Assembly (NCBI GenBank): GCA_030649165.1
Contig: JAUSGG010000015.1
Coordinates: 29,238 to 93,237, forward strand
Length of the DNA stretch: 64,000 bases
Source of the DNA: Armatimonadota bacterium
GTDB taxonomy: Bacteria > Armatimonadota > UBA5829 > JAUSEB01
Direction of reading: 5' to 3'
In this document: positions 2,025 through 54,400 of the stretch, one piece after another
Layout of the letters: each line of letters opens with the position of its first letter
How positions within the stretch are numbered: position 1 is the first letter of the stretch
The notes under the pieces: generated by a model
Database searches by the model: none
What the model was told of the DNA's origin: nothing
Seen by the model: the letters and a program-made list of their open reading frames with translations, nothing else
Translations under genes and position numbers: made by a program

Positions 2025-4025
2025 TCAACTCTCCAGGTTCAGCCAACGCAGCTCTTCAGGCGTCAAGCCCACGTCGAGCGCGAGCATGGATATCCGCATC
2101 TCTTCCATCGTCCGCGGCCCGAACAGCGCGAACGTCGGAAACGGCTGGCAGAGCACGTAAGCCATAGCTATCGTGACCGCCGGAACGCCGCGCCGGGCGG
2201 CCAGTTCCCTGGCGCGGGACAACCGCTGGAAATTGTCGTCGCTGTGCCAGCAGCGAACAAGCTCCGGGTCCGATTGGTCGTCCGGGTTTCCCCAGGCGAA
2301 GAACCCCCGCGCGGCGCTTGACCATGCGAACAGCGGCATTTGGTTCTTCGCGAACCATTCGCGGGAATCGCAGTCCGAAGATGAGAGGCATCCCGTCCAT
2401 ACCGGCTCCATGCACCGAGCAAGGCTGAAGTTGTTGCTTACGGCGGCGAACTCCATCAGTCCGTGTTCGCGAGCGTAGGCGTTCGCGGCCTCCACGCGGT
2501 CGAGTGTCCAGTTCGAGCCGCCGAACGCGCGAATCCGCCCTGCTTTGTGGTGTTCGTTCAGAACGTCCACGAATTCCCCGACCGGCACTTCCAGGTTGTC
2601 GCGATGCATCAAGTAAAGGTCGATATAGTCGGTCTGCAGCCGCTCCAGACTCTCCTGAAGATGTCTGGTCAAATCGTCCGGGTTGCAGTGCGGTGTGTGC
2701 GCGCCCTTACCCAGGATGACCACCTGCTCGCGGACACCTCGGCTCTTAACCCACCGGCCCAGGAGCGAGTCCGCCGGGCCATAAATATGCGCAGTGTCGA
2801 AGCAGTTGCCGCCGCGCGCGAAGAACTCGTCGAACATCAGGAACATGTGCGACGTCACAAACTGGATCCTATCGACTACGGTCCCCATCACGAGGCGCGA
2901 TACCGGCTTGCCGATGTCTTTCACTTCTCCGTACCGCATATTACACTCCGGCCTGATTTCAACCGGACGCGCGTCCACGGTCGGGTAGTCTACATCCGCC
3001 TTCTCCGTATCATAGGTCACACCGACCGCCATACGCCACAGGTCGAGCGTTCGCATATTGCCGAGCGAATCGTCCCAGGTCATCGCGGGCGACGGGGCCT
3101 GTCTCTTGTCTAATGACGCGGCCACCGTGTCGGCCTCTATCGCATAGAGCAAGTCGGTCCCGACGTCCAGCCCTATTTCCTCCGGCTGCTTCTCTTTATA
3201 GCGATGCACAATGATCTTCGGCCCGCCGGTATCTCTCCCGCAGAACCAGGGCGAGGGGACGAAGATGCTTCCCTCCGACCCGTCGATGCGCACGACGCTC
3301 TCCTGACGCACTCCAACGCCGGTCGCCAGTTGGGCGATGATGTCCCCCGGAAACTTGAGCGTCGCCGCCGCGTACTCGTCAACTCCGGTGACTCCTATAT
3401 GCCCGGCCCCTTTCACTTCGATCGGGTCGGCGAAATCATGTCCGATGGCGACTCCCGCGATCAGCCGAGCCATCGAGGCGGTGTAGCATCCTACGTCCAG
3501 AATCCCGCCGCCGCCGAGAGCATTCTTGAACAGACGGCTCTCAGGGGTGAACCCCGCGTCGAAGCTGAACGTCGCGTGGATCATGCGCACTTCGCCGATC
3601 GCCCCGCCGCGGATCAGTTCGACCAGTTTCTCCGTCTGCGGGTGACAGCGATACATGAACGCTTCCATCAGGAAAACGTCGTTTCGGCGCGCGGCCTCGA
3701 CAACGGCCATCGCCTCGGGATAGTTGAGCGTGAGGGGTTTCTCGCAGAGGATGTGCTTCCCCGCGTCGGCGGCTTTCACAGCCCATTCGGCGTGCATCGG
3801 GTGCGGCGTCGAGATGTAAACCGCCTCCACGTCCGGGTCAGCGAGGAGCGCTTCATAGCTGCCGTACCGGCGAGGGATGCCATGCTCCTCGCCGAACTTG
3901 TCCGCTTTGTCCTGCGTTCTGCTGGCAACCGCAGTGACCTGTCCGGTTTTGGACGCGGCGACCCCTTTCGCGAATACGCCTGATATCCGTCCCGTGCTGA
4001 TTATGCCCCACGAAAGCTTGCTCAT
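2025..4025 (-). CDS. Bifunctional oxidoreductase: N-terminal Gfo/Idh/MocA NAD(P)-binding dehydrogenase fused to a C-terminal aldo/keto reductase
   Basis: N-terminal Rossmann GIISTGRISG...EKPL motif of the Gfo/Idh/MocA family. C-terminal half has AKR-like features (GGNCFDTAHIYG..., YIDLYLMH). Start chosen at the internal ATG (MSKLSWGII), which gives an ATGA overlap with the upstream gene stop. Confidence 0.75.
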   Translation of the reverse strand: MSKLSWGIISTGRISGVFAKGVAASKTGQVTAVASRTQDKADKFGEEHGIPRRYGSYEALLADPDVEAVYISTPHPMHAEWAVKAADAGKHILCEKPLTLNYPEAMAVVEAARRNDVFLMEAFMYRCHPQTEKLVELIRGGAIGEVRMIHATFSFDAGFTPESRLFKNALGGGGILDVGCYTASMARLIAGVAIGHDFADPIEVKGAGHIGVTGVDEYAAATLKFPGDIIAQLATGVGVRQESVVRIDGSEGSIFVPSPWFCGRDTGGPKIIVHRYKEKQPEEIGLDVGTDLLYAIEADTVAASLDKRQAPSPAMTWDDSLGNMRTLDLWRMAVGVTYDTEKADVDYPTVDARPVEIRPECNMRYGEVKDIGKPVSRLVMGTVVDRIQFVTSHMFLMFDEFFARGGNCFDTAHIYGPADSLLGRWVKSRGVREQVVILGKGAHTPHCNPDDLTRHLQESLERLQTDYIDLYLMHRDNLEVPVGEFVDVLNEHHKAGRIRAFGGSNWTLDRVEAANAYAREHGLMEFAAVSNNFSLARCMEPVWTGCLSSSDCDSREWFAKNQMPLFAWSSAARGFFAWGNPDDQSDPELVRCWHSDDNFQRLSRARELAARRGVPAVTIAMAYVLCQPFPTFALFGPRTMEEMRISMLALDVGLTPEELRWLNLES

Positions 4026-4429
4026 TGCTGTTCCCGTCCCTCGTCTTCCCGGTTGAATTCCCTGTTGCGCCACACGTCCCAGTCGATCTCTTTTCCGCCC
4101 TCTGAAGCCTGCTTGAGAACGTCCTCGGCTTCCGCCCGTTTCGATGCCGGCACGAGCACAACAATCGGCCGTTCGTGCAGAAGAGTTGCGCGGTAAATGT
4201 GCATCGTATCGGATTGGACGAGAACCGGGATTCCCGCGGACCCGAGGATCGTTTTGATAATGTCCGCCTCGATCACGTCCTGGGCGACCATCAGCGGCGT
4301 CGGTTCATCCCCCGAACTCGACTTCGGAGTTTCTTCCGGCGGAAGAACTCGTTCCAGCGGAACGTCACAGTCGGGACAAACCGCTACCCCCTCGACGTAC
4401 TCGTACCTGCATTTAGGACAAAACGGCAT
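4022..4429 (-). CDS. Zn-ribbon plus DUF2007-like (putative signal-transducing) small protein
   Basis: Start MPFCPKCRYEY...CPDCD gives CxxC-x-CxxC, with RBS AGGAGA upstream. C-terminal region resembles DUF2007. It sits 5 nt downstream of the 758-aa gene. Confidence 0.65.
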   Translation of the reverse strand: MPFCPKCRYEYVEGVAVCPDCDVPLERVLPPEETPKSSSGDEPTPLMVAQDVIEADIIKTILGSAGIPVLVQSDTMHIYRATLLHERPIVVLVPASKRAEAEDVLKQASEGGKEIDWDVWRNREFNREDEGREQQ

Positions 4430-4433
4430 GTTT

Positions 4434-6710
4434 TCATTTCTCCTCATGCACACGAGCCATAACCCGGCCCAACGGCTCGTCGTCCGCCGGCGGCTCCAGC
4501 AGACGAGACAGCGGGCGGTGTTGCGCATAGAACCGCAGCGTATCGACGAAGCGCACCGACCCATCAGGACAGCACCTGCCGAAGCTCAGTTCGCCCTCGT
4601 CGTAATCCCTCGTGTAATCGCGCGACTCAGGATGCTCGTATAAATCGTTCACCTCCCGCCGCTCTTTCACCTTTCCCGTGGAGACCTCCCACCCGGCCAG
4701 CGCGGAGAATATCGTCCCCGTTTTCCTGAACGGCAGGATCCGCTGACGCAGAGCGCGCTCGATAGCGTCCAGATGCCTCGGCTGAACACCCAGCGCCTTG
4801 TCCGCCTGGGCCAACTGCCACGCGCCCTCGGTCGCCAGCTCGCCGTACGCAAGGCTGGACCGGGGATGAGGATATCTCCACCCGCCAAGTGGGTCCTGGT
4901 TATCCGTCAGAAAGTCCGCCACCGCCTGAACGACATCGCGCAGCTTCGGCTCATCCGTCGTGTGTTGGATAAGCTCCGGTAGACCCGAAAGAGCGTAACC
5001 CAGAATATACGGCTTCGCGAATGGGTACAAGCGCCAGGCGCTGTCGTCCTCGATGAACGGGGGATTGGCGTATATCGGCCTGCCGCTTTCAGTAAACAGG
5101 TCTCCTGTCGAAAGAAGGTTTCTAAGCTCGCGAAACAGGCGCAGGGCCTGATCGAGGTAAACGCGTTCTCCCGTGCAGCGATACAGCCTCACGAAATCCA
5201 GAACACAGCCGACGTTGCGCGTGCCGTTGCGGCCCGCGCGCACGTGCTCAGACGTGTACGCGACCTGAGCCTTGAGCGCGTCGAGCATACGGGGATCGCC
5301 CGTGTGTTCGTAGGCCAGCAGAAACGCATAGAAGCCTTTCGTGCAGAAATGCGATTGGCCATTCGTCCGCCACTGGAATGTCCGATCGTCATGCGGCGGC
5401 TTTTTGCCAATAGGAATAACATTGGGATAGCGCGTTCCGCCGGTCTTACCCGGCCCCCACCAAACCGTCAAATCGTGAAAGTTCTCGCACCAGAGCAAAG
5501 CGGCCTTGAGGAGGCGACCGTCACCGGCCCGGTAGGCGTCTTCAAAGATCGGGATGCACAGGTTCAAGCGGTTCATCCCGTTGATCGCCCCATGGTCCGA
5601 CCCGTCGTGGAACATGGTCACGTTGCCCCAATCGTCGCCAAGCGCGGCGCTGCGGCGAATCGCCTCACGATGATACTCCACAATCTCGGCGAGTTCCGGG
5701 TAATCGCACAGATCCAGCGGGCTGCCGATGCCGTACAATTCATCCCACAGCCGAAGGTCCACAGTTACCGCGTGCGGGTATTCGAGCGTTTCCGCAAGTG
5801 GGGCAAGCCCGGCGGGCGCAATTGTGAACTCCGCCTTCCGCCACGCGGCCTGCTGCATCGGGACCTTTTCCTCCACCGTGGAGCGCAGATAGCGGTAGGA
5901 GATTCGTCCGGCCACGGCCCGTTTGATGGTCACCAAGCCCCGGCGCTTGAACTGCGCCGTCGGATGCCGAAGCGCAAAGCGACAATTGTCGAAGAAGGCC
6001 GCGCAGGAAGCGTCGCCCTCGAACTTGTGCGTTATCGCTCTTTGCCCGACCTTGTTAGCTCCATCCTCCGGTTCGAGAACGGCGGAGCTTGCCTCCACGT
6101 CCAGTTTCCACCCGAACGCCGGCGCATACCCGTTTCCTCTCAGATTCCGCTGCAGATGGGCGATCACGGTGACACCGCCCAGGACGTCCGCCCGAACTTC
6201 GATCACGCGAGGCCAACGCGAATCGGGCAGTAGAACCCTTGTCCACGTAAAGTAGCTGTTAGACTCGACGATCTCCGTTTGCGCCGGTTCACAACTCGTC
6301 CGTCTGGGAGCGACGAGGCGCGCGCGGAAGACGGGGCCGTCGCGATAAGTAATACTGACCGCTTCGCCATCCACTACAACGTCCGCCGCGAACGCCAGCC
6401 GCGGTTCCGACGAGCCGGACACAGGCATGAGTTCAAACCTGACCGGCTTCACGCTCTTGAACTCGTACGGAAACGTTACCAGCCCTCTGCGAACGGAGGA
6501 AGGCTTCTCTTCGCCGGGATGGTAAGACAACGGGCGCAGCGCTGCCATAACCCTGCTCCGGCCATCCGAAACCTCCAGGACTTCGCCCTCCCGCACAAAC
6601 CCCTTCGGAAAAGGCAGAGAGTACCGCACCAATTGCCGACCTGACGCAGCCGGAGTAACGGCGACATCAACCGATTCGGTCTTTCTAAGATCACTACTCA
6701 CTTCTCGCAA
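4434..6710 (-). CDS. Hypothetical 758-aa cytoplasmic protein (possible alpha/alpha-toroid hydrolase or lyase-like); TTG or nearby GTG start
   Basis: Long ORF in the operon with no recognised catalytic motif. Start codon uncertain (TTG at 6710 or GTG at 6701). Confidence 0.6.
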   Translation of the reverse strand: MREVSSDLRKTESVDVAVTPAASGRQLVRYSLPFPKGFVREGEVLEVSDGRSRVMAALRPLSYHPGEEKPSSVRRGLVTFPYEFKSVKPVRFELMPVSGSSEPRLAFAADVVVDGEAVSITYRDGPVFRARLVAPRRTSCEPAQTEIVESNSYFTWTRVLLPDSRWPRVIEVRADVLGGVTVIAHLQRNLRGNGYAPAFGWKLDVEASSAVLEPEDGANKVGQRAITHKFEGDASCAAFFDNCRFALRHPTAQFKRRGLVTIKRAVAGRISYRYLRSTVEEKVPMQQAAWRKAEFTIAPAGLAPLAETLEYPHAVTVDLRLWDELYGIGSPLDLCDYPELAEIVEYHREAIRRSAALGDDWGNVTMFHDGSDHGAINGMNRLNLCIPIFEDAYRAGDGRLLKAALLWCENFHDLTVWWGPGKTGGTRYPNVIPIGKKPPHDDRTFQWRTNGQSHFCTKGFYAFLLAYEHTGDPRMLDALKAQVAYTSEHVRAGRNGTRNVGCVLDFVRLYRCTGERVYLDQALRLFRELRNLLSTGDLFTESGRPIYANPPFIEDDSAWRLYPFAKPYILGYALSGLPELIQHTTDEPKLRDVVQAVADFLTDNQDPLGGWRYPHPRSSLAYGELATEGAWQLAQADKALGVQPRHLDAIERALRQRILPFRKTGTIFSALAGWEVSTGKVKERREVNDLYEHPESRDYTRDYDEGELSFGRCCPDGSVRFVDTLRFYAQHRPLSRLLEPPADDEPLGRVMARVHEEK

Positions 6711-6862: not shown

Positions 6863-7765
6863 CTATGAAACGTTCAGTCCATAGATAGAAAGCATTTTCC
6901 TGGCAAACTGGAGATGCTCGTTCGTCGGCTCGGCCGCATCCGCTGCCGGCATTTCGCGTCCGAGCGCTCGCCACTTGACCTCGCCTCGTCGGTGAAACGG
7001 AAGCAGCTCGATGTTCAACCGCCCGATCGAGGAAAGGACCTCGCCAAACGCGCGCACCGTTTTATCGTCGGCGTTGTAACCGGGCACAAGGCAAATCCGA
7101 ACGACCATCGCGCCTTTTTGCTCGTAACGATGTCTAATGTTGTCCAAGGTTACGCGATTTCCCTGACCAGTTATGCGAGCGGCTTGGTCGTCGTCGGGAT
7201 GCTTCAAGTCGATGAATAGCAGATCGATCAGCGGAAACAACTCCGGCAGTCTTGGCTCGGAACCATTGGTTTCAACCGCGGTGTGAATGCTCTGTTCGCG
7301 CAGCCCGGCCAGCAACTCCGCAACCCCATCGAATTGGCACGCCGGCTCTCCCCCGCCGATCGTGACCCCACCCAACTTGCTGTAGAAGGACCGATAGCGA
7401 GCGGCCTTGTCCACAATCGCCTGGACGGACATCAGCCCTCCCGCCAATTCAAATGCGCGGCTGTTGGACTTCAGGCAGGGGAAATCGTCGCAAGAGGCGC
7501 AGACGAGCGTATCCCGGCGGACGCCATCAGGACCAACGCGGACCGCGCCCATCGGACAGGCTTCCGACAGGCGGACTGGTTCGTCCGCGCGACCTGAGTA
7601 GAAAAGGACCTCGGGCCTGTGGGCCATCGACTCCGGCGCGGCGCACCACGGGCAGCACATATTGCAGCCCTTGAGGTAGACGACCATCCGCTGCCCCGGT
7701 CCGTCCACGGCAACGGTGAACCCTGTGTTGAGGACCAGCAGGTTGTGGGCCTGGGTCTCGCTCAT
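6863..7765 (-). CDS. Glycyl-radical enzyme activating protein (radical SAM, PFL-activase family)
   Basis: CX3CX2C motif (GCNMCCPWC). Extra Cys-rich insert (CASCDDFPC). Start MSETQAHNLLVLN overlaps the GRE stop as ATGA. Confidence 0.85.
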   Translation of the reverse strand: MSETQAHNLLVLNTGFTVAVDGPGQRMVVYLKGCNMCCPWCAAPESMAHRPEVLFYSGRADEPVRLSEACPMGAVRVGPDGVRRDTLVCASCDDFPCLKSNSRAFELAGGLMSVQAIVDKAARYRSFYSKLGGVTIGGGEPACQFDGVAELLAGLREQSIHTAVETNGSEPRLPELFPLIDLLFIDLKHPDDDQAARITGQGNRVTLDNIRHRYEQKGAMVVRICLVPGYNADDKTVRAFGEVLSSIGRLNIELLPFHRRGEVKWRALGREMPAADAAEPTNEHLQFARKMLSIYGLNVS

Positions 7766-10221
7766 GCGACTCCCGCAAGACGCGTGGAGTCTGGATCGAG
7801 TCTCGTGATGATATCCTCCTGTATCGCGGGCGAGAGATCGAGAAAGTTCACGAAAGTGCCGTGGATGCGCATTATGTATATCCCGCTTGGGACCATTTCC
7901 TTCGGGTTTTCGAGAATCTTCCGCAGGCGTTTGGCAGTGTCCACGTTGAGATAAACGTAGTATCCTCCCCGTCGGTCGTCGCCGGTGTAACCGAACAGCG
8001 GGTTGATAACGTAATCCCGCAATCCGCGCCCAAATCTGTCCTCGCCGAACGCTTTTACCAGCGCGGCGTCGAGCCCGATGTGGCTTGCATACCCTCCGAG
8101 AAAATCCTCGTACGGTAGATTGCGCATACTCATTATCCTCACCGGCAAACCTTTCGTTGCCATCCCAGCGGTGGGATCGACGCCGTAGCCAAGCATCTTG
8201 CGAGCGCTCCGGCCGTCGGGAGTCGCTCCGGCCCAATAGCCGTACAGCAGATGGGTGCTCGGCGTGCTCCAGTCCGGCAGGAAAGGATTTCCGAACGAGT
8301 TCCGAAGCGCGTAGACTCGCGCCGAGACCTGTCGGGCAATTTCTCCCGCGTACGCATCGACGAACGCTTCGTCGTTTCCGTACTTAGGCGACTCCAGCAG
8401 CAAATCGCGCAATCCCTCGTGGCCCTCGAAATCCGCCAGCAGCGCTTTCGGCAGATCGGCTAAGGATTCGGGAGCGGTCGCGGAAGCATAGTCTATTGCC
8501 GCAAAGCTGTCCGCGACGATACTCAGCCCGTGGATGAGACATCCGGAAGCGTTGTATTTCGTCCCCTTTGCCGTGATGTCGCGCATGTCGCGGCCTGTAG
8601 TCAATCCCCCCATGAAGCAGGAGAGAAACGGAACGGGCAGGAGCGCAAGCGCTTCGGTACAGCCGTTGGCGGCCTTTGCCATACGCGGCACGAAGTAATC
8701 CAACTGCTTCCAAAAGGCCGATCTGAAGCGCTCCGGGTTACCAATGGGATTCCGCGGGTCAAGGCCCGTTTCCTCGTATGACAAACCGATCTTGCGCCCG
8801 CTGATCGCGCTCTTGCCGCCGTGAATCGTCAGTTCCAGGACCTTCGCCAGGTTCAGCCAACTGTTCGTGGTATTGCCCGACTCCTTGCCCATAATCAGCG
8901 GCTCCTGGCACCCGGCGATGCCGTAGAATGGCAGGTCTTCTTCCTCGATGCCCTTGCGCCGCAGGACTTCGAACATGCGGTCGTCGTTGAAGAAACTCGG
9001 AGTCAGGCTGCCCGGCGTCGTGAAAAACCGGCTCATAGCGTCGTAAAGGCGCTCCGGCGTGCCGGAATGCAGCTTGACGGAGAGCGACGGCTGCGGGTAG
9101 TTGCTCCGGAAGAAAGCGTCAAGGACAACGTAGGTCATCTCGCCAGTCAGATCGTGACCGTTCTCGCATCGCCCCCCCGCCATTATGTTCTGGCTGATCG
9201 CCCAATTGCGGTCCCCGACGTTGAAGAGCGCGAGAAGATGCCGCGTGAGCTGTACGGCAACTTCGTGGTCTACCGGCGCCTTATCGAAGAACGGCTGCAG
9301 AATCCTGTCCAGATTCCCCACACTGAACGCGTACGGGTTCGGAGCCTGCTCGATTGCCATCGCCATCCAAAGGAGGATGAACGACTGAATGGCTTCGTAC
9401 AGATCACGCGCCCCTTCGCGAAGGACACGTCCGCAGGTGGATGAGATACGCTGCAGCTCGCTTCGCCGCACCGGGTCCGCTTCAGTCTCGGCCATTTCCG
9501 CCGCCAGGGCCGAATACCGGTCCGCCAGATGAAGATCCCCCGACATCGCTATCACCGCGGCTTCGTAGAAGTCTCTCCTCTCTCCTTCCGCCGTGTTCGC
9601 CGCGGATTTGGCCCGTTCGATTAGATGAGTGAGCCCCTGCTCCATCGCCGGCCGGAAATCCGCCACCGTATGCCCGGTAACCTGCTCCACGAAGTATACG
9701 ACTTCCCCTGTCTCAAGTCCGGTTTCGGCGTAAACAGAGTTGAGCGCCTGAGCGTACTCCTCCTTCGCCCAAAAGTCTCGAACCCGTTGTATGCGCTCTT
9801 CCGTCAACCCCAATTCGGGCGCGGGCGTTATGTCGCCGTAAACCGCCATCGGGTCGCAATAGCCCGCGAAGGTCTCGACGCGAAACTCCGGGTTGATCAG
9901 CGCGTAGGTTCGGGCGAACGCATCGTCCTGAGTTCCCGCGAAGACTTCGTCGGGCCGGATCGAAAGTCGCATGCGTTTGCATACCGCCTCGAACAGCTTC
10001 GCCTGCGCGAGAACTCTTGGGAGCGAGACCCCTCCCCAGCCCTCCCCTGAAGAGGGAGGGAGCGCCCTTGCCCGTAAGCCCTCAAGCGCTTCCTTCCGGA
10101 TTTCCTGAATATAAAACCACCCGTCGAGGCGGACCATCTCCCGGTTCTGCTTCTGCACCGACAGAAGCTGCTCCGCCAAACGGTCCGGATCGAATCGAAT
10201 CTTCTCCTCCACAACAGCCAT
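7762..10221 (-). CDS. Glycyl radical enzyme (PFL/eliminase superfamily) with a divergent glycine-radical motif
   Basis: 819 aa. Cys loop GIAGCQEP (C-x-E, eliminase-type). C-terminal RIHGTFVNF...QEDIITR aligns to the canonical RVSGYAVRF...QQDVITR. N-terminal region resembles the GRE N-domain. Confidence 0.85.
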   Translation of the reverse strand: MAVVEEKIRFDPDRLAEQLLSVQKQNREMVRLDGWFYIQEIRKEALEGLRARALPPSSGEGWGGVSLPRVLAQAKLFEAVCKRMRLSIRPDEVFAGTQDDAFARTYALINPEFRVETFAGYCDPMAVYGDITPAPELGLTEERIQRVRDFWAKEEYAQALNSVYAETGLETGEVVYFVEQVTGHTVADFRPAMEQGLTHLIERAKSAANTAEGERRDFYEAAVIAMSGDLHLADRYSALAAEMAETEADPVRRSELQRISSTCGRVLREGARDLYEAIQSFILLWMAMAIEQAPNPYAFSVGNLDRILQPFFDKAPVDHEVAVQLTRHLLALFNVGDRNWAISQNIMAGGRCENGHDLTGEMTYVVLDAFFRSNYPQPSLSVKLHSGTPERLYDAMSRFFTTPGSLTPSFFNDDRMFEVLRRKGIEEEDLPFYGIAGCQEPLIMGKESGNTTNSWLNLAKVLELTIHGGKSAISGRKIGLSYEETGLDPRNPIGNPERFRSAFWKQLDYFVPRMAKAANGCTEALALLPVPFLSCFMGGLTTGRDMRDITAKGTKYNASGCLIHGLSIVADSFAAIDYASATAPESLADLPKALLADFEGHEGLRDLLLESPKYGNDEAFVDAYAGEIARQVSARVYALRNSFGNPFLPDWSTPSTHLLYGYWAGATPDGRSARKMLGYGVDPTAGMATKGLPVRIMSMRNLPYEDFLGGYASHIGLDAALVKAFGEDRFGRGLRDYVINPLFGYTGDDRRGGYYVYLNVDTAKRLRKILENPKEMVPSGIYIMRIHGTFVNFLDLSPAIQEDIITRLDPDSTRLAGVA

Positions 10222-10251: not shown

Positions 10252-11682
10252 CTAAAACCCTTCCCCAAACAACGTCTTTCCCGCCGCCGTCCAATCCGCG
10301 TATACTCCGGTCGCGATTCCCGCCGCCAGGGCCGCGCCTACGGCGGCCTCTTCCGGGTGAGGCGGCATACGGAGCGTCATACCAACTTGTTTCTGTATCT
10401 CATTCCTCACCACGATATTTCTTCGCACCGCGTTCCCTGACCCGGAGCAGAATTTCGGAACGGCGCCCGCTCGCCGGGCGCAATCCAGAAACGCCGCCAA
10501 TTCGGCTACCATACCTTTGATAACCGCTCGCGTGAGATTTCCGACCGTGAAATTCGCGCCGCTCACATTTGCGATAGAGCCGCGCGCCCCCGGATCCAGC
10601 CGGCTGCCTTCGAACAGCGTCGACGCCGTCAGCACTCCGCACTCCTCGTCCGCATCCGCCGCCAGACGGTTCATCCGATCATAAAGCCTTTCCGTTCCAC
10701 CGGCATCGAATAAACTACTGCCAACGCCGGCGAAAAACTTCTCCAGGATTTCGTAAGCCCGTCCACCGCACAAACTCGCGCCCACGAGGAGCCATTGCCC
10801 GGCAACGAGGGGCCGGGTATCCAATCCATCCGCTCGCGCGAATCGCCCTATCGGCGCGGACATCTGGCCGCCCGTCCCCAGGCTCAACAAAACGCTTTCG
10901 CTCATAGAAGGAACGCTGCCCATGAACGACGCCTGGTTGTCACCCAGCGCCGCGGCGACCGGCGTTCCGTACGGCAAATCGATCCGTTGCGCGACATCCG
11001 GCAGCAGGCCGCCTGCCACTGATCCTGTCGGGACCACGCCGGGCAGCATTCCGTCCGGCAGACTCAGGGCGTCGAGGGCTTCAGGGAGCCAGCGCGAGCC
11101 GTGGCGGACGTCGAATATCCCCCAGCTCGCTGCGTCGGTCGGGTCGGTGACCGCGGCGCCACATAAAACGCGAACGATCAGATCGTGGATCGTTAGAGCC
11201 GTTGCGCCGGCAGGCAGGCAGCCTTCTTCCTTCATCCTGAGCAGAGTGACCGCTCCATAGCCGGTCGCCGGGCCGCAGCCGCTTGCTTTCAAAGCCTCGT
11301 CGCCAAGCCGATGGGCGAGCTCTTCCGCGTAACTCCGGCCGCTCGTGGAATACTCCGCGGTTCCGCGCCCATCCTGCCAGGTAACCAGAGGAGTAACCGG
11401 ATTAGCCGCGGAATCCACCACAACTACTCCGTGCATTTGGCCGGTGACGCCGATCCCAACGACCTCGGACTGCCGAATCTCCGGCCGGCTCGAAAGGCGG
11501 GCCAGCAGCGCCAGGGACTTGCCTGCAATCGAGCCGGCGTCCTGCTCCGCGACCCCTGGCGCGGACTCAACCCGCGAGTCGTTAGGCGCATCCTCGACGG
11601 CCATCATACGGCCACTCGACGAGTCCAAAGCCGCGGCGCATAGTTTCGTAGTGCCGATATCAAGGCCGATAAGAACACCCAT
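10252..11682 (-). CDS. FGGY-family carbohydrate kinase
   Basis: Start MGVLIGLDIGTTK matches the FGGY N-terminal motif. The product would be about 476 aa. The longer upstream ORF extension is low-complexity and likely non-coding. Confidence 0.8.
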   Translation of the reverse strand: MGVLIGLDIGTTKLCAAALDSSSGRMMAVEDAPNDSRVESAPGVAEQDAGSIAGKSLALLARLSSRPEIRQSEVVGIGVTGQMHGVVVVDSAANPVTPLVTWQDGRGTAEYSTSGRSYAEELAHRLGDEALKASGCGPATGYGAVTLLRMKEEGCLPAGATALTIHDLIVRVLCGAAVTDPTDAASWGIFDVRHGSRWLPEALDALSLPDGMLPGVVPTGSVAGGLLPDVAQRIDLPYGTPVAAALGDNQASFMGSVPSMSESVLLSLGTGGQMSAPIGRFARADGLDTRPLVAGQWLLVGASLCGGRAYEILEKFFAGVGSSLFDAGGTERLYDRMNRLAADADEECGVLTASTLFEGSRLDPGARGSIANVSGANFTVGNLTRAVIKGMVAELAAFLDCARRAGAVPKFCSGSGNAVRRNIVVRNEIQKQVGMTLRMPPHPEEAAVGAALAAGIATGVYADWTAAGKTLFGEGF

Positions 11683-13821: not shown

Positions 13822-14499
13822 ATGAGTCGTTTTCCCACAATAATGCTTGCCGTGTTCGCCGCGCTCGCGCTCACTGGATGCGCCCGCGCCCCCGCGGGCG
13901 GACCCGGCGCCGCGCGCAGACTGGTCATCGAGATGCGCGTCGCGGGCGTCATCAATCCCGACTATTTCTATTACGTCGCAATCGACAATGATGGTGACCC
14001 GAACGACGGTCCCCAAGCGGTCGTCGGCCCGCCCTGGGGCAACGGCTGGGGCGCCGGGGCGATTACCCATTACGTTCAGTTCGACACCAGCCTTCCGCAG
14101 GGCGGTTACGGCCTATTCAGGATACCCGATGCCGGTCTTTTGGGCAAGGTTTACCTCGGCCCGCCTGTCAACTTCATCACCCCCGGCCCCAGCGGCAACA
14201 CGCTCAGGTTCACGCTGGATCTGGACGATCTCGTAATCCCTCCGCAGACGGATGGAAACCAGATACAGACGCTTGAGATAAACTTCATTGCCACGGACGT
14301 GGTCCCCACCGACCCATCCTTCGTGGGCCCGCGGCAATGGGACGCGCTCGGGGACGGGAGCAGCAACGCGTTCCTGCGACTGAACGTTACCCCGGGGCAG
14401 TTCATTTCTAATGGCACGGAAGGACTGGAGCCGGACGGCGACGTCTTCCACCCCGATTTGGACATAGTGGACTGGTCGATAGAAGTGCAGCAACTATAA
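13822..14499 (+). CDS. Lipoprotein (signal peptide with lipobox LTGC), function unknown
   Basis: MSRFPTIMLAVFAALALTGC. Confidence 0.7.
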   Translation: MSRFPTIMLAVFAALALTGCARAPAGGPGAARRLVIEMRVAGVINPDYFYYVAIDNDGDPNDGPQAVVGPPWGNGWGAGAITHYVQFDTSLPQGGYGLFRIPDAGLLGKVYLGPPVNFITPGPSGNTLRFTLDLDDLVIPPQTDGNQIQTLEINFIATDVVPTDPSFVGPRQWDALGDGSSNAFLRLNVTPGQFISNGTEGLEPDGDVFHPDLDIVDWSIEVQQL

Positions 14500-14766: not shown

Positions 14767-14830
14767 GCCTGCTTATTCACGGTCTTGCCCTGTACGGCGG
14801 AGGTCGTGGATAAGCGGGCGTTTTGTTTTT
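14767..14830 (+). terminator. Leader terminator/attenuator (possible riboswitch expression platform) in the 5' UTR of the 14899 operon
   Basis: 11-bp stem CGCCTGCTTAT...ATAAGCGGGCG enclosing an inner hairpin, followed directly by TTTTGTTTTT. It lies between the promoter and the start codon. Confidence 0.6.
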
Positions 14831-14898
14831 GCAGTGAACAATTGAGCGTCCGGATGCATCATGCTATATGGACTGTCGGCAGGCGGGAGGTATCAAGT

Positions 14899-16482
14899 AT
14901 GTTCGGATTGCTGGGGAAAATCGTCAAAATAGAGAAGAAAGAGGAGAGCGGCCTCAGTCGTTTCGAGGTCAGCTTCAAGGCCGCCTGCACTCTGCCGACC
15001 AGGGCAGCCGTTCCTGAGTGGCTCAAAGACCAGGTTCTCAAGATAGACCGTGAGGTCGTCGATCCTCGTGAGCTTGGCAACCCGGGTGACAGCATTGTTC
15101 TGACGCCGTCGGAATCCGCGCGCTGGCTCTATCCGCTGACCGTTGCTCCGCAGACGGCTTACGGAGAATTGCCTGAAACTCTTCGGATCGACCTTCGCTG
15201 GTGGAAGAGCGACGACCCGCCCGAGTACGCGGTCCGCGCGAACGGCAGGCAGATCACCGGCAAGTTCACCAAGGAAGATGGAGAGTTCCTTGCTGACATT
15301 CGGACCGGGGACTTCTACACGTCGCAGCCGCGACTTCCGGTCTCTTTCCGGATAACGTGCGACAAAATGGCAGCAGCGTGCTCGGTCCTGCCGGACGACG
15401 GGCCGTTTTGGACGGAAATCCTGCCGCCGCGGGGCGAGCTTCACCGGCTTGAGAACGAGTGGTACGCCGTAGACGTCACCGCGAAAATGCACGCCGGAGG
15501 AGTCGTCGCCCTGTTCGAAAAAGGACGGCAGGTAGATCACTTCCGGTGTCCCGAAAACTTGATTCAGCCGACGTTGAAGAACGGGGGACATACAGATCGG
15601 CTCCTGCGCGGATGGGGATGGTACGACAAACTGAACGAAATCGCCATGACGTGCCACGGCGCCAGGCGTGAAGGAAACGCGACGAGCCTCCACCTCGACG
15701 GCGTTGTGGACGACGGACAGGGCATCAGGACTTCGGTGGCCTACACGGCCTTTGACGCCTTCCCGCTCATTACGCTTAAGCGAGAGTACCACGTACACAC
15801 CCTAAAGAAGGATGAGGCCAAGGACAAGGAGAAAGAAACCGCCCCCAAGGAACCAATAGACGAGGCCATGCCGCTCAAGCTTGTTTTTCGCGCGTCGTGG
15901 AGAGTCGAAGACAACGGCAAATCCGGAAGCCGGGCGCTGTGCCTTGACGGCGAGAAACTGGCCGTCATACGAACCGGCCAGACACAGGAGATCGCATTTG
16001 CCGGTGACTGGCGCATGCGCCAGGGTTGGGCTATCGTCGAACATCCGGCCCGTCGGGAATACACGATGTACTTGTTCGACGATCAGGCCCAGCCCAGCCT
16101 CTGCGTCTACCACGGCCCTTACGGCATCAGTCTGGAGCCGCATTGGCTGCCGGTTGTGCTGAAGCCCGGCGACTCGATAGGCTATACTCTCGGACTGACT
16201 GCCGGCGAACTCTGCGGCGCGAGTCCCGCGGGCGCGTGGGTAGCCTGCCGGACGCGGCTTTCCTCCGGCGGCGTGCGCTGCGGTGTCGTTGCGCGCGCAA
16301 ACGCCGGAGAAGAGAACGTTACTTTCAAAGTCGGAACAGCAGAACGCCGCATGAATCTAACGAAGCTGCTTGCGCCTGGGTTGGGCGAGGTATGCTGCGC
16401 TGTCGCCGATTTTCCTGACGCGACCATGGAGGACCATTTCGACGCCGTGGTCGCCGGCATTGAAGCCCGGAGGGGACTATGA
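14899..16482 (+). CDS. Hypothetical 527-aa cytoplasmic protein (no recognised domain)
   Basis: RBS GGGAGG is 8 nt upstream of the ATG at 14899. Its stop overlaps the next gene's ATG (ATGA). Confidence 0.65.
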   Translation: MFGLLGKIVKIEKKEESGLSRFEVSFKAACTLPTRAAVPEWLKDQVLKIDREVVDPRELGNPGDSIVLTPSESARWLYPLTVAPQTAYGELPETLRIDLRWWKSDDPPEYAVRANGRQITGKFTKEDGEFLADIRTGDFYTSQPRLPVSFRITCDKMAAACSVLPDDGPFWTEILPPRGELHRLENEWYAVDVTAKMHAGGVVALFEKGRQVDHFRCPENLIQPTLKNGGHTDRLLRGWGWYDKLNEIAMTCHGARREGNATSLHLDGVVDDGQGIRTSVAYTAFDAFPLITLKREYHVHTLKKDEAKDKEKETAPKEPIDEAMPLKLVFRASWRVEDNGKSGSRALCLDGEKLAVIRTGQTQEIAFAGDWRMRQGWAIVEHPARREYTMYLFDDQAQPSLCVYHGPYGISLEPHWLPVVLKPGDSIGYTLGLTAGELCGASPAGAWVACRTRLSSGGVRCGVVARANAGEENVTFKVGTAERRMNLTKLLAPGLGEVCCAVADFPDATMEDHFDAVVAGIEARRGL

Positions 16483-51402: not shown

Positions 51403-54400
51403 ATGCGCCGATTCAGTCCATGTTTCTCCCTGGTTCTTGTCGTCTGGCTGTTCCTGGCGATAGTCCCCGCGCTTGCTGACATCGGATTCGTGTACACCTG
51501 CGACCAGGTCCCCCACCTGGCTCCGTCGGCGTGGAACGTGTCTCCAAACGGCCCGTCAAACAGCGTCCATACGGAACAATGTGGAGGAAGCTGTAATGGC
51601 ATCACAAACAGCGTAGTTACGGACGGGGGATCCAACGTGTGGAAGGTGGTGGACGCGAACACATCCTACTGCGGAATCTGGAAAAACGCCAACCTGAGCG
51701 GCATGAATTTAGGCAGGGGCGTGACGATAGCTGCCAACATAAGGTGTGAGGAAAACTCATCAGACAGTTCCTTTACGCTTGGTATTAATAAGACGAATTC
51801 CGCTGTGCTGTTTCTCTGCGTCAGAACGGATGGCTGCCTTCTTATGGACAGAGAAGGCGTGGTAAAGAGTTCGTACTCATTTACGGCCGACACCACGGGC
51901 TACCACCGCTATTATCTGACCGCACAGAATCCTCCCGGGGTGGGCGACGACCAGTGTGTCTGGACTGTCTATCGAGACGGCCAGTCGGTGATGACCTATA
52001 CACCAGGTCTTCTAGCGAACTGGACAGCCAGCAACGCATTCTTCGCCGGGCACGGGGGACCGTATACGACGAATATTGGCTCCGGGACGGGAACGTGGTA
52101 TTTCGACTGGATCGCGTGCAGGACTGACGGAGCCTTCAGCCCAAGCCAGTGGGACCCCATGCTTCCGCCACCGGCTCCGACGGTCACGGCGCCGGCCAAC
52201 GGTTCCACGGTCATCATCCTCAACCCAACCATACAATGGACGAACACCTATTACGACAGCTATGAGGTCCACGTCACCACGACAAACAACCCCACCGGCG
52301 CCATCGCCTGGGACTCCGGCGTAGTGGTGAGCACAGCGAATTCCTGCACTCCGGCCAACCTGGCGAACGGGTCATATTACATATTCATCCGCCTGCGCGC
52401 CCCTGCGGGATGGGGACCCTGGAGCGCCGAAGGTTACAGGTTCACGGTTGATGCGCCTACCAGTCCGCCCGTCGCGCCCACTATGACTGCGCCTGTTCCC
52501 GGGTCAACTCTGAACACAAGAAACGTCGTGATTGGGTGGACGGGAGGCACGCGCGACGGCTACCAAGTCCACATAAATACCACCAATCTGCCGAACGACG
52601 CGGACGGATGGGACTCCGGCTCGGTAATGAACAAAGCCAATGACTGCCTTTCCGGAAGCCTTGCGAACGGCTCTTATTACGCTTTTGCCAGGTTGCGCAA
52701 TCTGGCCGGCTGGGGGGAATGGAGCACGGGCGTTAACTTCACAGTGGACGTTTCGTCAGTCCTGCCGGGGGCGCCCGTCGTGGTAACCCCGATGGACGGG
52801 TCGAACGTGGCGCTGCAGAAGCCCGTGGTTCGGTGGATCGGAGATGCGCACGACAAATACGAGGTCCATGTCAACACAACGAACACTCCTGCCGACACGG
52901 ACGCCTGGACCTCCGGCGAGGTATCCAGCGCCGATGACTGGTGCGACTCCGGTATCCTGACCAACGGAGCCTACCACGTCTTCGTCCGCGTGCATAACGA
53001 CGCGGGCTGGGGTCCATGGAGCGCCGGACGAGCCTTCACGGCGAACTTCACCGGCTCCGAGATGAAGAAGGGTTGGATCTTCCTTCGCGACGACCTGCCT
53101 TACCACCTGGAATTGCTCACTCACGCCCGTGAGTACCACGTGAACCATTTGCAGATATCCCACGACATAATGATGTACGCTTGGCAGCCGATCAATGATG
53201 TGGCAAAGCGCAGCAAGATCAACCAACTCATTGATACGGCTCACGCTAACGGCGTAAGCGAAGTAGTATTGTGGTCTCACGAGATAATGTACCGCGACTT
53301 GCCGCCGCAGTACAGAGTCGGCGGAAAGGTCAACCTGGACGATCCCGGCTTCTGGACGTGGATGGACTCAGAGTACGAAACACTGTTCACAGTGTGCCCG
53401 AACGCCGATGGACTCGTTTTCACGTTCAGCGAGTCCGATGTGGACTTCGACAACCGTTTCGAAACCATTCACACCGGCAAGACGCCCATAGACACGTACG
53501 CCAAGGCGATTGAGACCCTGTGGAACGTCTGCCACAGGCACAACAAATCCCTCTACATACGCACTTGGGGATCTGACAAGTGGATCCGCGACGGCCTCAT
53601 GCGCAACGATCCCGCCATCTGGCTCATGAATAAGGCCACCGGCGCCGCCGACTGGAACGTGATCCAGGAAGATTACGATATGGTCGGCACGGCTCCGGGG
53701 CATCCGGAGTTGATGGAATTCGACTTTACGGGCGAGTATTGGGGACTTACCTACACTCCGTGGGCCGGCATAGACTTCACGCGACACCTGTGGTCCGAGT
53801 TTGGCTTGCCGCGCGGGGTTGATGGCATGGCGGCAAGGATAGACAGAGACAACGGAAACGCTGTCCAAACTCCCAACAGGATCAATATGGCCGCGCTGGA
53901 TATTCTGGCTGATTCCCCGGACATCTCTTCCGATGATATCTACAGCTATTGGTCTAACCACTGGTTCGGCCCCTCGGGGGCGAAGATAGCGTCTTCGCTG
54001 AAGAGGACCTTCGACATCACGAACGCCTGCTACGGCCTGCCAACCGTCTACCCGTTCTCCTATTGGGTCGCTATCAACGACATCAAGTCATCCACGTTCG
54101 ACCTGAACTGCGTGGCCCCCAGCCTCAAAGCCGACACCAACTACCAGTCCGGCGTCACGGCCTACGACCTGTTCCACGGGCGAATGATGAACGCCGCGGC
54201 CAAATTGGGGATTGGCGTACCGACAACACTATTCGGCGACTTCACGCCCATTTACAGCAACGAGACGAGCCCGACGTGTACCGCGACGATCGTGGACGCG
54301 TCAACGGGACTGAACCCGTCCTCGTTCTACGTCGAGTACTCTACGGACGGCGGATCATCATGGACCCCCTACTCCAACATCACGGTCACGGCGGAGGGAT

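Follow-up and report, generated by a model that had tools for sequence, protein, structure and literature searches.

A putative new subfamily of glycyl radical enzymes with RIHGT and GCQE motifs, encoded next to a sugar kinase in an Armatimonadota bacterium and in other phyla

Introduction

Glycyl radical enzymes (GREs) perform chemically difficult anaerobic reactions that shape gut and sediment metabolism. The described enzymes closest in fold to the one considered here are the glycerol dehydratase (GD) of Clostridium butyricum (1r8w/1r9d) and the propanediol dehydratases (PDs; 5i2g, 9rco), which carry the loops RVAGY and GCVE and are encoded in the context of 1,3-propanediol dehydrogenase and microcompartment genes. 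The only characterised GREs acting on hexose-type substrates are YbiW and PflD of E. coli (8id7, 8id0, 8yjo; "anhydroglycolysis"), whose substrates are 1,5-anhydroglucitol-6-P and 1,5-anhydromannitol-6-P (PMC13450708). They have the canonical RVAGY loop, their substrates are phosphorylated via the phosphotransferase system (PTS), and a fructose-6-phosphate aldolase (FSA) gene is adjacent. Here, we analyse a GRE gene (positions 7762-10221, minus strand) in a stretch of 64,000 nucleotides from an Armatimonadota bacterium (assembly GCA_030649165.1, contig JAUSGG010000015.1, positions 29,238 to 93,237 of the forward strand; this whole stretch is hereafter called the window), whose product reads RIHGT and GCQE in the two loops, and whose neighbour is an FGGY-family sugar kinase gene.

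The published GRE fingerprint is RVxG[FWY]x6-8[FL]x4Qx2[IV]x2R. The Gly and Cys loops meet in GRE active sites; a Cys-x-Glu (CxE) motif in the Cys loop is preserved in every GRE C-O, C-N and C-S eliminase and in the isomerases HplG, YbiW and PflD, and an adjacent Cys-Cys pair is known only in pyruvate formate-lyase (PFL) and TdcE (PMC13450708). The aminoacyl radical enzymes (AAREs), discovered in 2024, are PFL-like proteins of unknown function in which the radical-site Gly is changed to Ala, Ser or Thr, and many GRE clades remain unannotated (PMC13450708).

Results

Motifs of the enzyme and its place among the GREs

The gene and its landmarks are the following.

7762..10221, minus strand: GRE catalytic subunit of the RIHGT/GCQE clade, 819 amino acids (aa); single intact open reading frame (ORF) with an ATG start, PF02901 E=2e-110
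7801..7869, minus strand: glycyl-radical fingerprint region R785-R807 (RIHGTFVNFLDLSPAIQEDIITR), placed by the HMMER/MAFFT alignments and at a hairpin tip in the AlphaFold2 (AF2) model
7855-7869, minus strand: RIHGT motif (coordinates checked)
Codon 7858-7860, minus strand: putative radical site Gly788, aligned with the radical Gly of GD, YbiW and PflD
8902..8913, minus strand: Cys loop G437-C438-Q439-E440 with the putative thiyl radical Cys438 and the putative catalytic base Glu440 (alignment, hairpin tip)
9670..9672, minus strand: His184 (motif TGH), aligned with the general-acid His164 of GD (HMMER alignment, codon checked)

The C-terminal segment of the protein (residues 783-807) is IMRIHGTFVNFLDLSPAIQEDIITR, and the C-terminus reads ...GIYIMRIHGTFVNFLDLSPAIQEDIITRLDPDSTRLAGVA. 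In the HMMER alignment, RIHGTFVNFLDLSPAIQEDIITR falls column for column on RVAGYSAQFISLDKSIQNDIIAR of GD 1r8w, and the same register is obtained with the PD 9rco and the Archaeoglobus GRE 2f3o (RIHGTFVNF on RVAGYSAQF); in the MAFFT alignment, the RIHGT segment coincides with RVAGYSAFF of E. coli YbiW and PflD. Residues 434-441 are GIAGCQEP, where GCQEP aligns with GCVEP of GD and PD (HMMER), with GCIE of YbiW and with GCVE of PflD (MAFFT).

The strict fingerprint differs at two positions, as Val is changed to Ile and the aromatic residue to Thr; the free "x" is taken by His787, and further downstream L, Q, I and R all agree with the fingerprint. The Gly_radical domain model PF01228 does not match the protein, even at E<=10 on the last 125 residues. 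At the same time, since PF02901 matches with the E-value given above and both motifs are invariant in all 120 closest homologues, the RIHGT/GCQE match is not a chance one.

Four further features that define the GRE superfamily are present. The fold is the PFL-like 10-stranded beta/alpha barrel according to PF02901, the AF2 model and Foldseek; Gly788 is at the tip of the C-terminal beta-hairpin (model, alignment, invariance), the invariant Cys438 lies on a finger loop, likewise at a hairpin tip in the model, and there is a dedicated radical S-adenosylmethionine (SAM) activating enzyme, of the same TIGR02494 type as in GD and the PDs. The Cys loop contains Cys-x-Glu (C438-Q439-E440), and His184, the counterpart of GD His164, is invariant in the clade. 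Judging by the alignments, the combination of Cys-x-Glu with the aligned general-acid His carries the hallmarks of GRE eliminases and isomerases.

The initial annotation had described 7762-10221 as a GRE with RIHGT and GCQE, and PF02901 and the alignments bear this out; the strand, which it did not give, is minus. It had placed the radical Gly where both the alignment and the hairpin tip of the AF2 model place it, the motif not lying elsewhere, and the structure prediction that it had proposed as a check yields the canonical GRE fold, in which Gly788 and Cys438 each sit at the tip of a hairpin. Among the fingerprint changes, the retention of Gly and Arg and the positions of His and Thr were read correctly (HMMER, MAFFT), whereas the change from Val to Ile had been overlooked. 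The AGCQEP thiyl loop was rightly taken for a Cys-x-Glu of the eliminase/isomerase type with Gln for the usual residue, as it aligns on GCVE/GCIE.

Predicted structure and pocket

The AF2 model (pLDDT 90, pTM 0.93; input alignment of 117 sequences) places Gly788 at the tip of the hairpin 783-786/789-792 and Cys438 at the tip of the hairpin 433-436/440-443. In Foldseek comparisons, the TM-score of the model is 0.74-0.82 against every solved PFL-like GRE (more than 40 GRE structures) and 0.78-0.82 against GD, PD and CutC, with GD as the best match. No solved GRE structure was more than 25% identical to the protein in the PDB sequence search and Foldseek.

According to the alignment, the residues of the GD pocket are replaced: His281 by Tyr297, Ser282 by Ala298, Tyr339 by Ser343, Asp447 by Thr452, and Tyr640 by Ser652. 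Both pocket tyrosines (Tyr339, Tyr640) hence become serine. Further polar positions of the clade are Asn450, Thr451 and Asp650, all invariant, Asn453, nearly so, and His657, invariant or nearly invariant. The loss of two tyrosines suggests a larger and more polar pocket than that of GD and a larger, polyhydroxylated substrate, as far as can be predicted from aligned residues.

Conservation, spread and boundary of the clade

RIHGTFVN[F/L]L[D/E]L and GCQEP are found in 120/120 closest database homologues, from 79% down to 50% identity, which come from Armatimonadota, Sumerlaeota, Bacillota, Bacteroidota and Planctomycetota. The alignment of 117 homologues has about 110 invariant positions, including Gly788, Cys438, Glu440, His184 and the whole R785-N792 stretch. 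The homologues are named "pyruvate formate lyase family protein" or "formate C-acetyltransferase" in the databases, and our protein is identical to a "pyruvate formate lyase family protein" of an Armatimonadota metagenome-assembled genome.

The peptides RIHGTFVN and GDR[SN]WAISQ were scanned against one genome per species (185,579 species), and at least 584 confirmed loci were found to carry these clade signatures. The carriers belong to Armatimonadota, Bacillota, Bacteroidota, Verrucomicrobiota, Lentisphaerota, Spirochaetota and Planctomycetota. The best 80 of the at least 584 loci include Verrucomicrobiota, Lentisphaerota, Spirochaetota and the isolate Christensenella tenuis, as well as many human and herbivore gut Acutalibacteraceae, Oscillospiraceae and Lachnospiraceae.

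An exhaustive HMMER search of 1.84 billion representatives (50% identity clusters) found 749 proteins with E<1e-30, among them the core-clade representatives P0121 and P0122 (RIHGT) and P0123 (RIHGQ). At 34-40% identity there are sister representatives with RVHGM, RVHGY or RVHGF, all with GCQE, and below approximately 33% identity all proteins have the ordinary RV[A/S/T/G]G[Y/F/W] with GC[V/I/L/M]E.

Among the 121 full-length representatives, we observed that His immediately before the Gly and Gln immediately after the Cys go together: ten out of ten His-bearers have Gln, compared to two of the 111 others. Thus, the two residues form a coupled pair that defines a wider superclade. The ten His-bearers have in common His184, Tyr297, Ala298, Trp340, Ser343, Thr451 and Thr452; Thr789, Ile786, Asn450, Asn453 and Asp650 are specific to the core clade. 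The position of His184 is occupied by His in 93/111 non-clade GRE representatives. As the Gly and Cys loops meet in GRE active sites (PMC13450708), His787 and Gln439, which replace the usual Ala/Ser and Val, most probably form a polar contact between them.

The sister clades (P0128, P0133, P0134, P0136, P0162, P0171; loci L089-L094) resemble the core clade in RxHG, GCQEP and sugar-related contexts, and differ from it, at the identity given above, in that the Ile of the Gly-loop motif is Val in them and the Thr following the Gly is an aromatic residue or Met. In contrast to the core clade, the three sister representatives with a precomputed Pfam annotation (P0133, P0134, P0136) do match PF01228. 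Their neighbours, in one locus each, are a RuBisCO-like protein with a split thiamine pyrophosphate (TPP) enzyme, SIS and PfkB; a nucleoside-hydrolase-family gene; and GH38. In the first of these loci, that of P0134, the gene order is DeoR, activase, GRE, RuBisCO-like protein, split TPP enzyme (E1 alpha/beta type), SIS, PfkB, and a lyxose isomerase, an FGGY kinase, a class II aldolase and a TauE exporter are encoded near the GRE; this cluster looks like another uncharacterised radical sugar pathway. A further representative, P0131 (746 aa, 36% identity), has Asp (GDEL) where Cys438 aligns and a Gly loop reading RVPGA, and from these residues it may be a paralogue without the catalytic Cys.

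The claim of the initial annotation that the gene represents a divergent GRE subfamily agrees with these data: identity to any PDB entry is at most 25%, there is no NCBIfam equivalog, and no characterised member was found. The search for other RIHGT-containing GREs, which it had recommended, shows the motif to be common (at least 584 loci), but only within a clade for which no characterised member was found. The signature is hence that of a large multi-phylum clade and no peculiarity of a single gene, with the His/Gln co-variation marking a wider superclade and with a genomic context indicative of carbohydrate metabolism.

Gene context in homologous loci

Neighbouring ORFs were clustered across 81 loci, and adjacency was counted in the 58 homologous loci with at least three genes on each side. 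Only three partners are conserved, namely the activase, adjacent to the GRE in 54/58 loci, the FGGY kinase (49/58), and a cupin related to the Bacillus phosphomannose isomerase (PMI), which adjoins it in 29/58 loci. For the PMI-like cupin, the match to 1qwr has E=4e-20, and the TIGR00218 score of 95 bits is under the cut-off of 116. In an uncultured Lachnospiraceae (L045, 12401-14959), the kinase and the cupin are fused in one 852-aa ORF, and hence this fusion suggests that the two act consecutively.

In Bacillota, activase, GRE, kinase and cupin form a stand-alone cassette amid housekeeping genes (pyrimidine synthesis, panCD, adhE, a sporulation sigma-factor). The variable partners are ROK, LacI/GntR and DeoR regulators and ribose-type ABC and MFS transporters. 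Several glycoside hydrolase (GH) families also recur, each in few loci: in Bacteroidota (Sunxiuqinia, Tannerellaceae) the clade genes are part of three-gene GH32 fructan polysaccharide utilization loci, GH172 adjoins them in two Armatimonadota, and a GH38 alpha-mannosidase is directly downstream or nearby in six loci. The loci with GH32 or GH172 lack the cupin and four of the six GH38 loci have it, these numbers being too small to rely on. A Symbiothrix locus contains a psicose-epimerase-like gene and a DalD-like polyol dehydrogenase, and locus L003 contains a phosphofructokinase and a PfkB kinase. The kinase and cupin are replaced by URO-D-family genes (PF01208) on the flanks of the GRE-activase pair in L033 and in L030 (Christensenella tenuis NSJ-35), the latter with, in addition, genes for a Zn-dependent alcohol/polyol-type dehydrogenase and for a ribose-type ABC transporter. 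Overall, the context is that of carbohydrate catabolism centred on fructose- and mannose-type sugars, and it does not specify the substrate.

Two side observations concern the same loci. A URO-D gene is likewise present in the sister-clade locus L092, and an uncultured Ruminococcus sp. (L076) has two activase-GRE pairs in tandem, followed by the kinase and the cupin.

The operon in the window

On the minus strand of the window, the GRE gene belongs to an apparent operon with the order FGGY kinase, GRE, activase, 755-aa hypothetical, DUF2007/zinc-ribbon protein, GFO/IDH/MocA-aldo-keto reductase (AKR) fusion. Its other genes are listed below.

10252..11682, minus strand: FGGY-family sugar kinase, 476 aa (PF00370, PF02782), directly upstream of the GRE in the same orientation
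6863..7765, minus strand: GRE activating enzyme (radical SAM), 300 aa; TIGR02494 208.5 bits, cut-off 174.35
4434..6701, minus strand: conserved hypothetical protein, 755 aa, no Pfam/NCBIfam match, downstream of the activase
4022..4429, minus strand: small zinc-ribbon/DUF2007 protein, 135 aa; PF09413 E=7.5e-7
2025..4025, minus strand: GFO/IDH/MocA oxidoreductase-AKR fusion, 666 aa (PF01408, PF22725, PF00248), last gene of the apparent operon

The start of the activase gene overlaps the GRE stop by 4 nt, and the activase carries the CX3CX2C motif CNMCCPWC and one auxiliary Cys motif. The kinase scores 145 bits on the XylB model and 68 bits on the GlpK model (cut-off 590), both far under the cut-offs; its homologues are called "sedoheptulokinase" by the JGI and NCBI automated pipelines.

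The 755-aa protein adjoins the GRE in this window only, among 83 loci compared, and its membership of the GRE system is uncertain. Its AF2 model (pLDDT 91) consists of a beta-sandwich followed by a helical region; the closest solved fold is the PL26 exo-rhamnogalacturonan lyase (TM 0.57, 10% identity), and there is a weak similarity to GH127/GH88. Its homologues, of which there are more than 270, occur in Armatimonadota, Verrucomicrobiota and Acidobacteriota, and some of them are fusions with Abhydrolase_7/DLH domains; to go by the model, the protein probably represents an undescribed family of carbohydrate-active enzymes. A 44%-identical homologue of the DUF2007/zinc-ribbon protein follows the GRE-activase module in the Armatimonadota locus L003 (4857-5291). 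The ORF of the GFO/IDH/MocA-AKR fusion overlaps the preceding gene by 4 nt, and GFO-type genes are found near the GRE in few other loci.

Elsewhere in the window, a 1918-aa ORF (51403-57159, plus strand), in which Pfam finds only fn3 and Rha78A-like Ig domains, probably encodes a large secreted or surface carbohydrate-related protein. Two ORFs beyond lnt, 13822-14499 (plus strand, 225 aa) and 14785-16482 (plus strand, 565 aa), have no Pfam/NCBIfam match.

Discussion

A subfamily apart from the known GREs

The protein shares with GD and the PDs the 10-stranded barrel, the Cys-x-Glu loop, the aligned general-acid His and the type of activase, and differs from them in its RIHGT and GCQE motifs, in its identity of at most 25%, and in a context of a sugar kinase and a PMI-like isomerase instead of 1,3-propanediol dehydrogenase and microcompartment genes. 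With YbiW and PflD it has in common the CxE motif, the His and a catabolic sugar operon with an activase; however, the identity is 24-26%, the Gly loop of the clade is RIHGT, and in place of PTS and FSA genes, none of which are nearby, there is an FGGY kinase and often a PMI-like cupin. The AAREs are similar in being PFL-like proteins whose radical-site motif departs from the canonical fingerprint; unlike them, the clade keeps Gly788 in every member, and what is changed are the two residues flanking the Gly and the residue following the catalytic Cys.

NCBIfam release 20 (June 2026) contains no equivalog for the protein, the best subfamily model being TIGR01774 (262.9 bits vs a cut-off of 678.2). 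The June 2026 review of GREs describes no such enzyme and links none of its characterised enzymes to an FGGY kinase (PMC13450708). In the literature on GREs with sugar kinases or sugars, and in searches with the motif strings themselves, we found no characterised clade member and no paper. The clade thus combines the fold and machinery of a GRE with a signature of its own, a coupling of His and Gln and a new genomic setting. What the data show are the fold and the motifs, how far these are conserved, the activase and the neighbouring genes; we consider it very probable that the protein is an active GRE of a new subfamily.

A proposed route

From these features we infer that a radical is formed, what type of reaction follows, in which order the GRE and the kinase act, which kind of substrate is used and that His787 touches Gln439. 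Gly788, the tip residue of the C-terminal finger loop, would lose a hydrogen to the co-transcribed radical-SAM activase (6863-7765), and the radical would then move to Cys438 on the facing Cys loop. The substrate would be neutral and hexose-sized, namely a sugar, an anhydro-sugar or a polyol, probably of fructose/mannose-type configuration. From one of its hydroxyl-bearing carbons the thiyl radical would abstract H; Glu440 would deprotonate that hydroxyl and His184 would protonate the oxygen on the neighbouring carbon, and the C-O bond would then be cleaved in a dehydration or, as by YbiW and PflD, in the opening of an ether ring. The product radical would regain H from Cys438. The FGGY kinase (10252-11682) would phosphorylate the resulting keto sugar, and the PMI-like cupin, in most other genomes, would isomerise the product, leading it to glycolysis or the pentose phosphate pathway. 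We lean, with moderate confidence, towards this whole chain, that is, towards a functional GRE with C-O cleavage as its reaction and a neutral sugar or polyol of hexose size as its substrate, the product being processed by the kinase and the cupin. As to the particular reaction, inositol ring opening, hexitol dehydration, opening of levoglucosan, mannosan or difructose anhydride, and sulfoquinovose desulfonation can be named as speculation.

Several observations speak against such a chain. Since the strict fingerprint does not fit and PF01228 does not match, installation of the radical at Gly788 is an extrapolation, and the relative order of the kinase and the GRE in the pathway is a matter of interpretation as well. 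The flanking genes of at least 80 loci do not pin down the substrate, no accessory enzyme beyond the kinase and cupin is universal in the 80-odd loci, and PMI-like, GH32, GH38 and GH172 genes are all absent from the 64-kb window. The typical product of a GRE elimination is a deoxy-keto sugar, so a dedicated aldolase should be needed; the cassette conserves none, a DeoC-family gene adjoining it in L002/L013 only, and this missing aldolase is a weakness common to all eliminase readings. The gene context of a distant kinase homologue outside GRE cassettes (P0383) pointed to no non-radical enzyme replacing the GRE.

Alternative explanations

The main rival is the reverse order, in which an imported sugar or anhydro-alditol is first phosphorylated by the FGGY kinase and the resulting sugar phosphate is the substrate of the GRE, in a PTS-independent version of "anhydroglycolysis". 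No GREs other than YbiW and PflD are known to act on sugars, and both have the CxE motif and the His found in the clade, whose carriers have the kinase where E. coli has the PTS; the basic Arg338 lines up with Lys/Arg of YbiW/PflD in the MAFFT alignment, although in an indel region where this alignment is unreliable; and the operon in the window ends with the GFO/IDH/MocA-AKR fusion, members of both families being reported as 1,5-anhydrofructose reductases (PMC12441222). On the other hand, the protein is no nearer to YbiW/PflD than to GD, it scores 171.8 bits on the PflD-type model NF007437 (cut-off 1109), the cassette conserves no FSA/transaldolase-like gene, in contrast to the adjacent fsaA/fsaB in E. 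coli, and 1-deoxyfructose-6-P is not suited to a PMI-type aldose-ketose isomerase. Membership in the YbiW/PflD group was rejected from the alignment with the E. coli proteins and the operon comparison, and we consider the kinase-first order rather unlikely. Of a similarly low likelihood is an undescribed type of GRE reaction on a free, unphosphorylated hexose-type substrate, for example a radical ring-opening or an isomerisation of the ketose/aldose type, with the His/Gln pair as a new polar bridge from the Gly loop to the Cys loop, altering the radical transfer from Gly to Cys. Were this doubtful possibility true, the product would be fructose/mannose-configured and fed by the kinase and the PMI-like isomerase directly into glycolysis, and a "radical hexose" cassette would be widespread among gut Clostridia, Bacteroidota and Armatimonadota. 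It is improbable that the enzyme is a C-S or C-N lyase eliminating sulfite or an amine from a substituted sugar (sulfoquinovose/sulfofructose or an amino sugar), a version in which the substituent at C6 would mimic phosphate and the PMI-like cupin would isomerise the sugar bearing it. Known GRE C-S and C-N lyases do bear the same CxE motif (PMC13450708), the HpsG and HpfG models give 181-188 bits, a GH31 gene lies upstream in one locus, and a TauE-family exporter ends one sister-clade locus; but these sulfonate-lyase scores are far under the cut-offs and lower than that of the GD-type model, sulfite exporter, sulfite reductase and sulfoquinovosidase genes are not conserved in the 80-odd loci, and the GH32, GH172 and GH38 contexts favour unsubstituted fructose and mannose.

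If, instead, the enzyme were an orthologue of the B12-independent glycerol or 1,2-propanediol dehydratases, with a glycerol kinase as its FGGY neighbour, one would account for 1r8w and 9rco/5i2g being the best PDB matches in both sequence and fold, and for glycerol kinases being the best PDB matches of the kinase. However, the identity is only 25%, TIGR01774 is far under its cut-off, the residues aligned with GD His281, Ser282, Tyr339, Asp447 and Tyr640 all differ, the kinase scores higher on XylB than on GlpK, and 1,3-propanediol dehydrogenase and microcompartment genes are absent from the examined loci. Given this identity, pocket and gene context, the orthology was rejected and is, in our opinion, very improbable. 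The automated annotation as PFL (formate C-acetyltransferase) has in its favour the database names and the PFL-like fold; nonetheless, as there is one Cys (GCQE) and not a Cys-Cys pair and TIGR01255 gives 62.7 bits vs a cut-off of 994.2, PFL chemistry is excluded, and the structure 1h16 matches at E=9e-17 only. Hence this annotation was rejected as well, the chance of its being correct being negligible. Finally, the blindness of PF01228 to the domain and the missing aromatic residue after the Gly might indicate a catalytically dead relic, or pseudoenzyme. The activase adjacent in 54/58 loci, together with the invariance of Gly788, Cys438, Glu440 and His184, is a strong argument against this; in addition, the RIHGTFVN segment is extremely conserved across phyla, the ORF is intact and the model is confident, so that a dead enzyme is hardly credible.

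Significance

As the clade escapes PF01228, GRE censuses based on domains can miss it. It is widespread (at least 584 loci) and present in gut species of humans and herbivores, and its sequence is very strongly constrained. The co-varying His/Gln pair beside both radical residues constitutes a natural experiment on the communication between the Gly and Cys loops. Compact and portable, the cassette formed by activase, GRE, sugar kinase and PMI-like isomerase provides a testable hypothesis for a new anaerobic pathway of carbohydrate metabolism.

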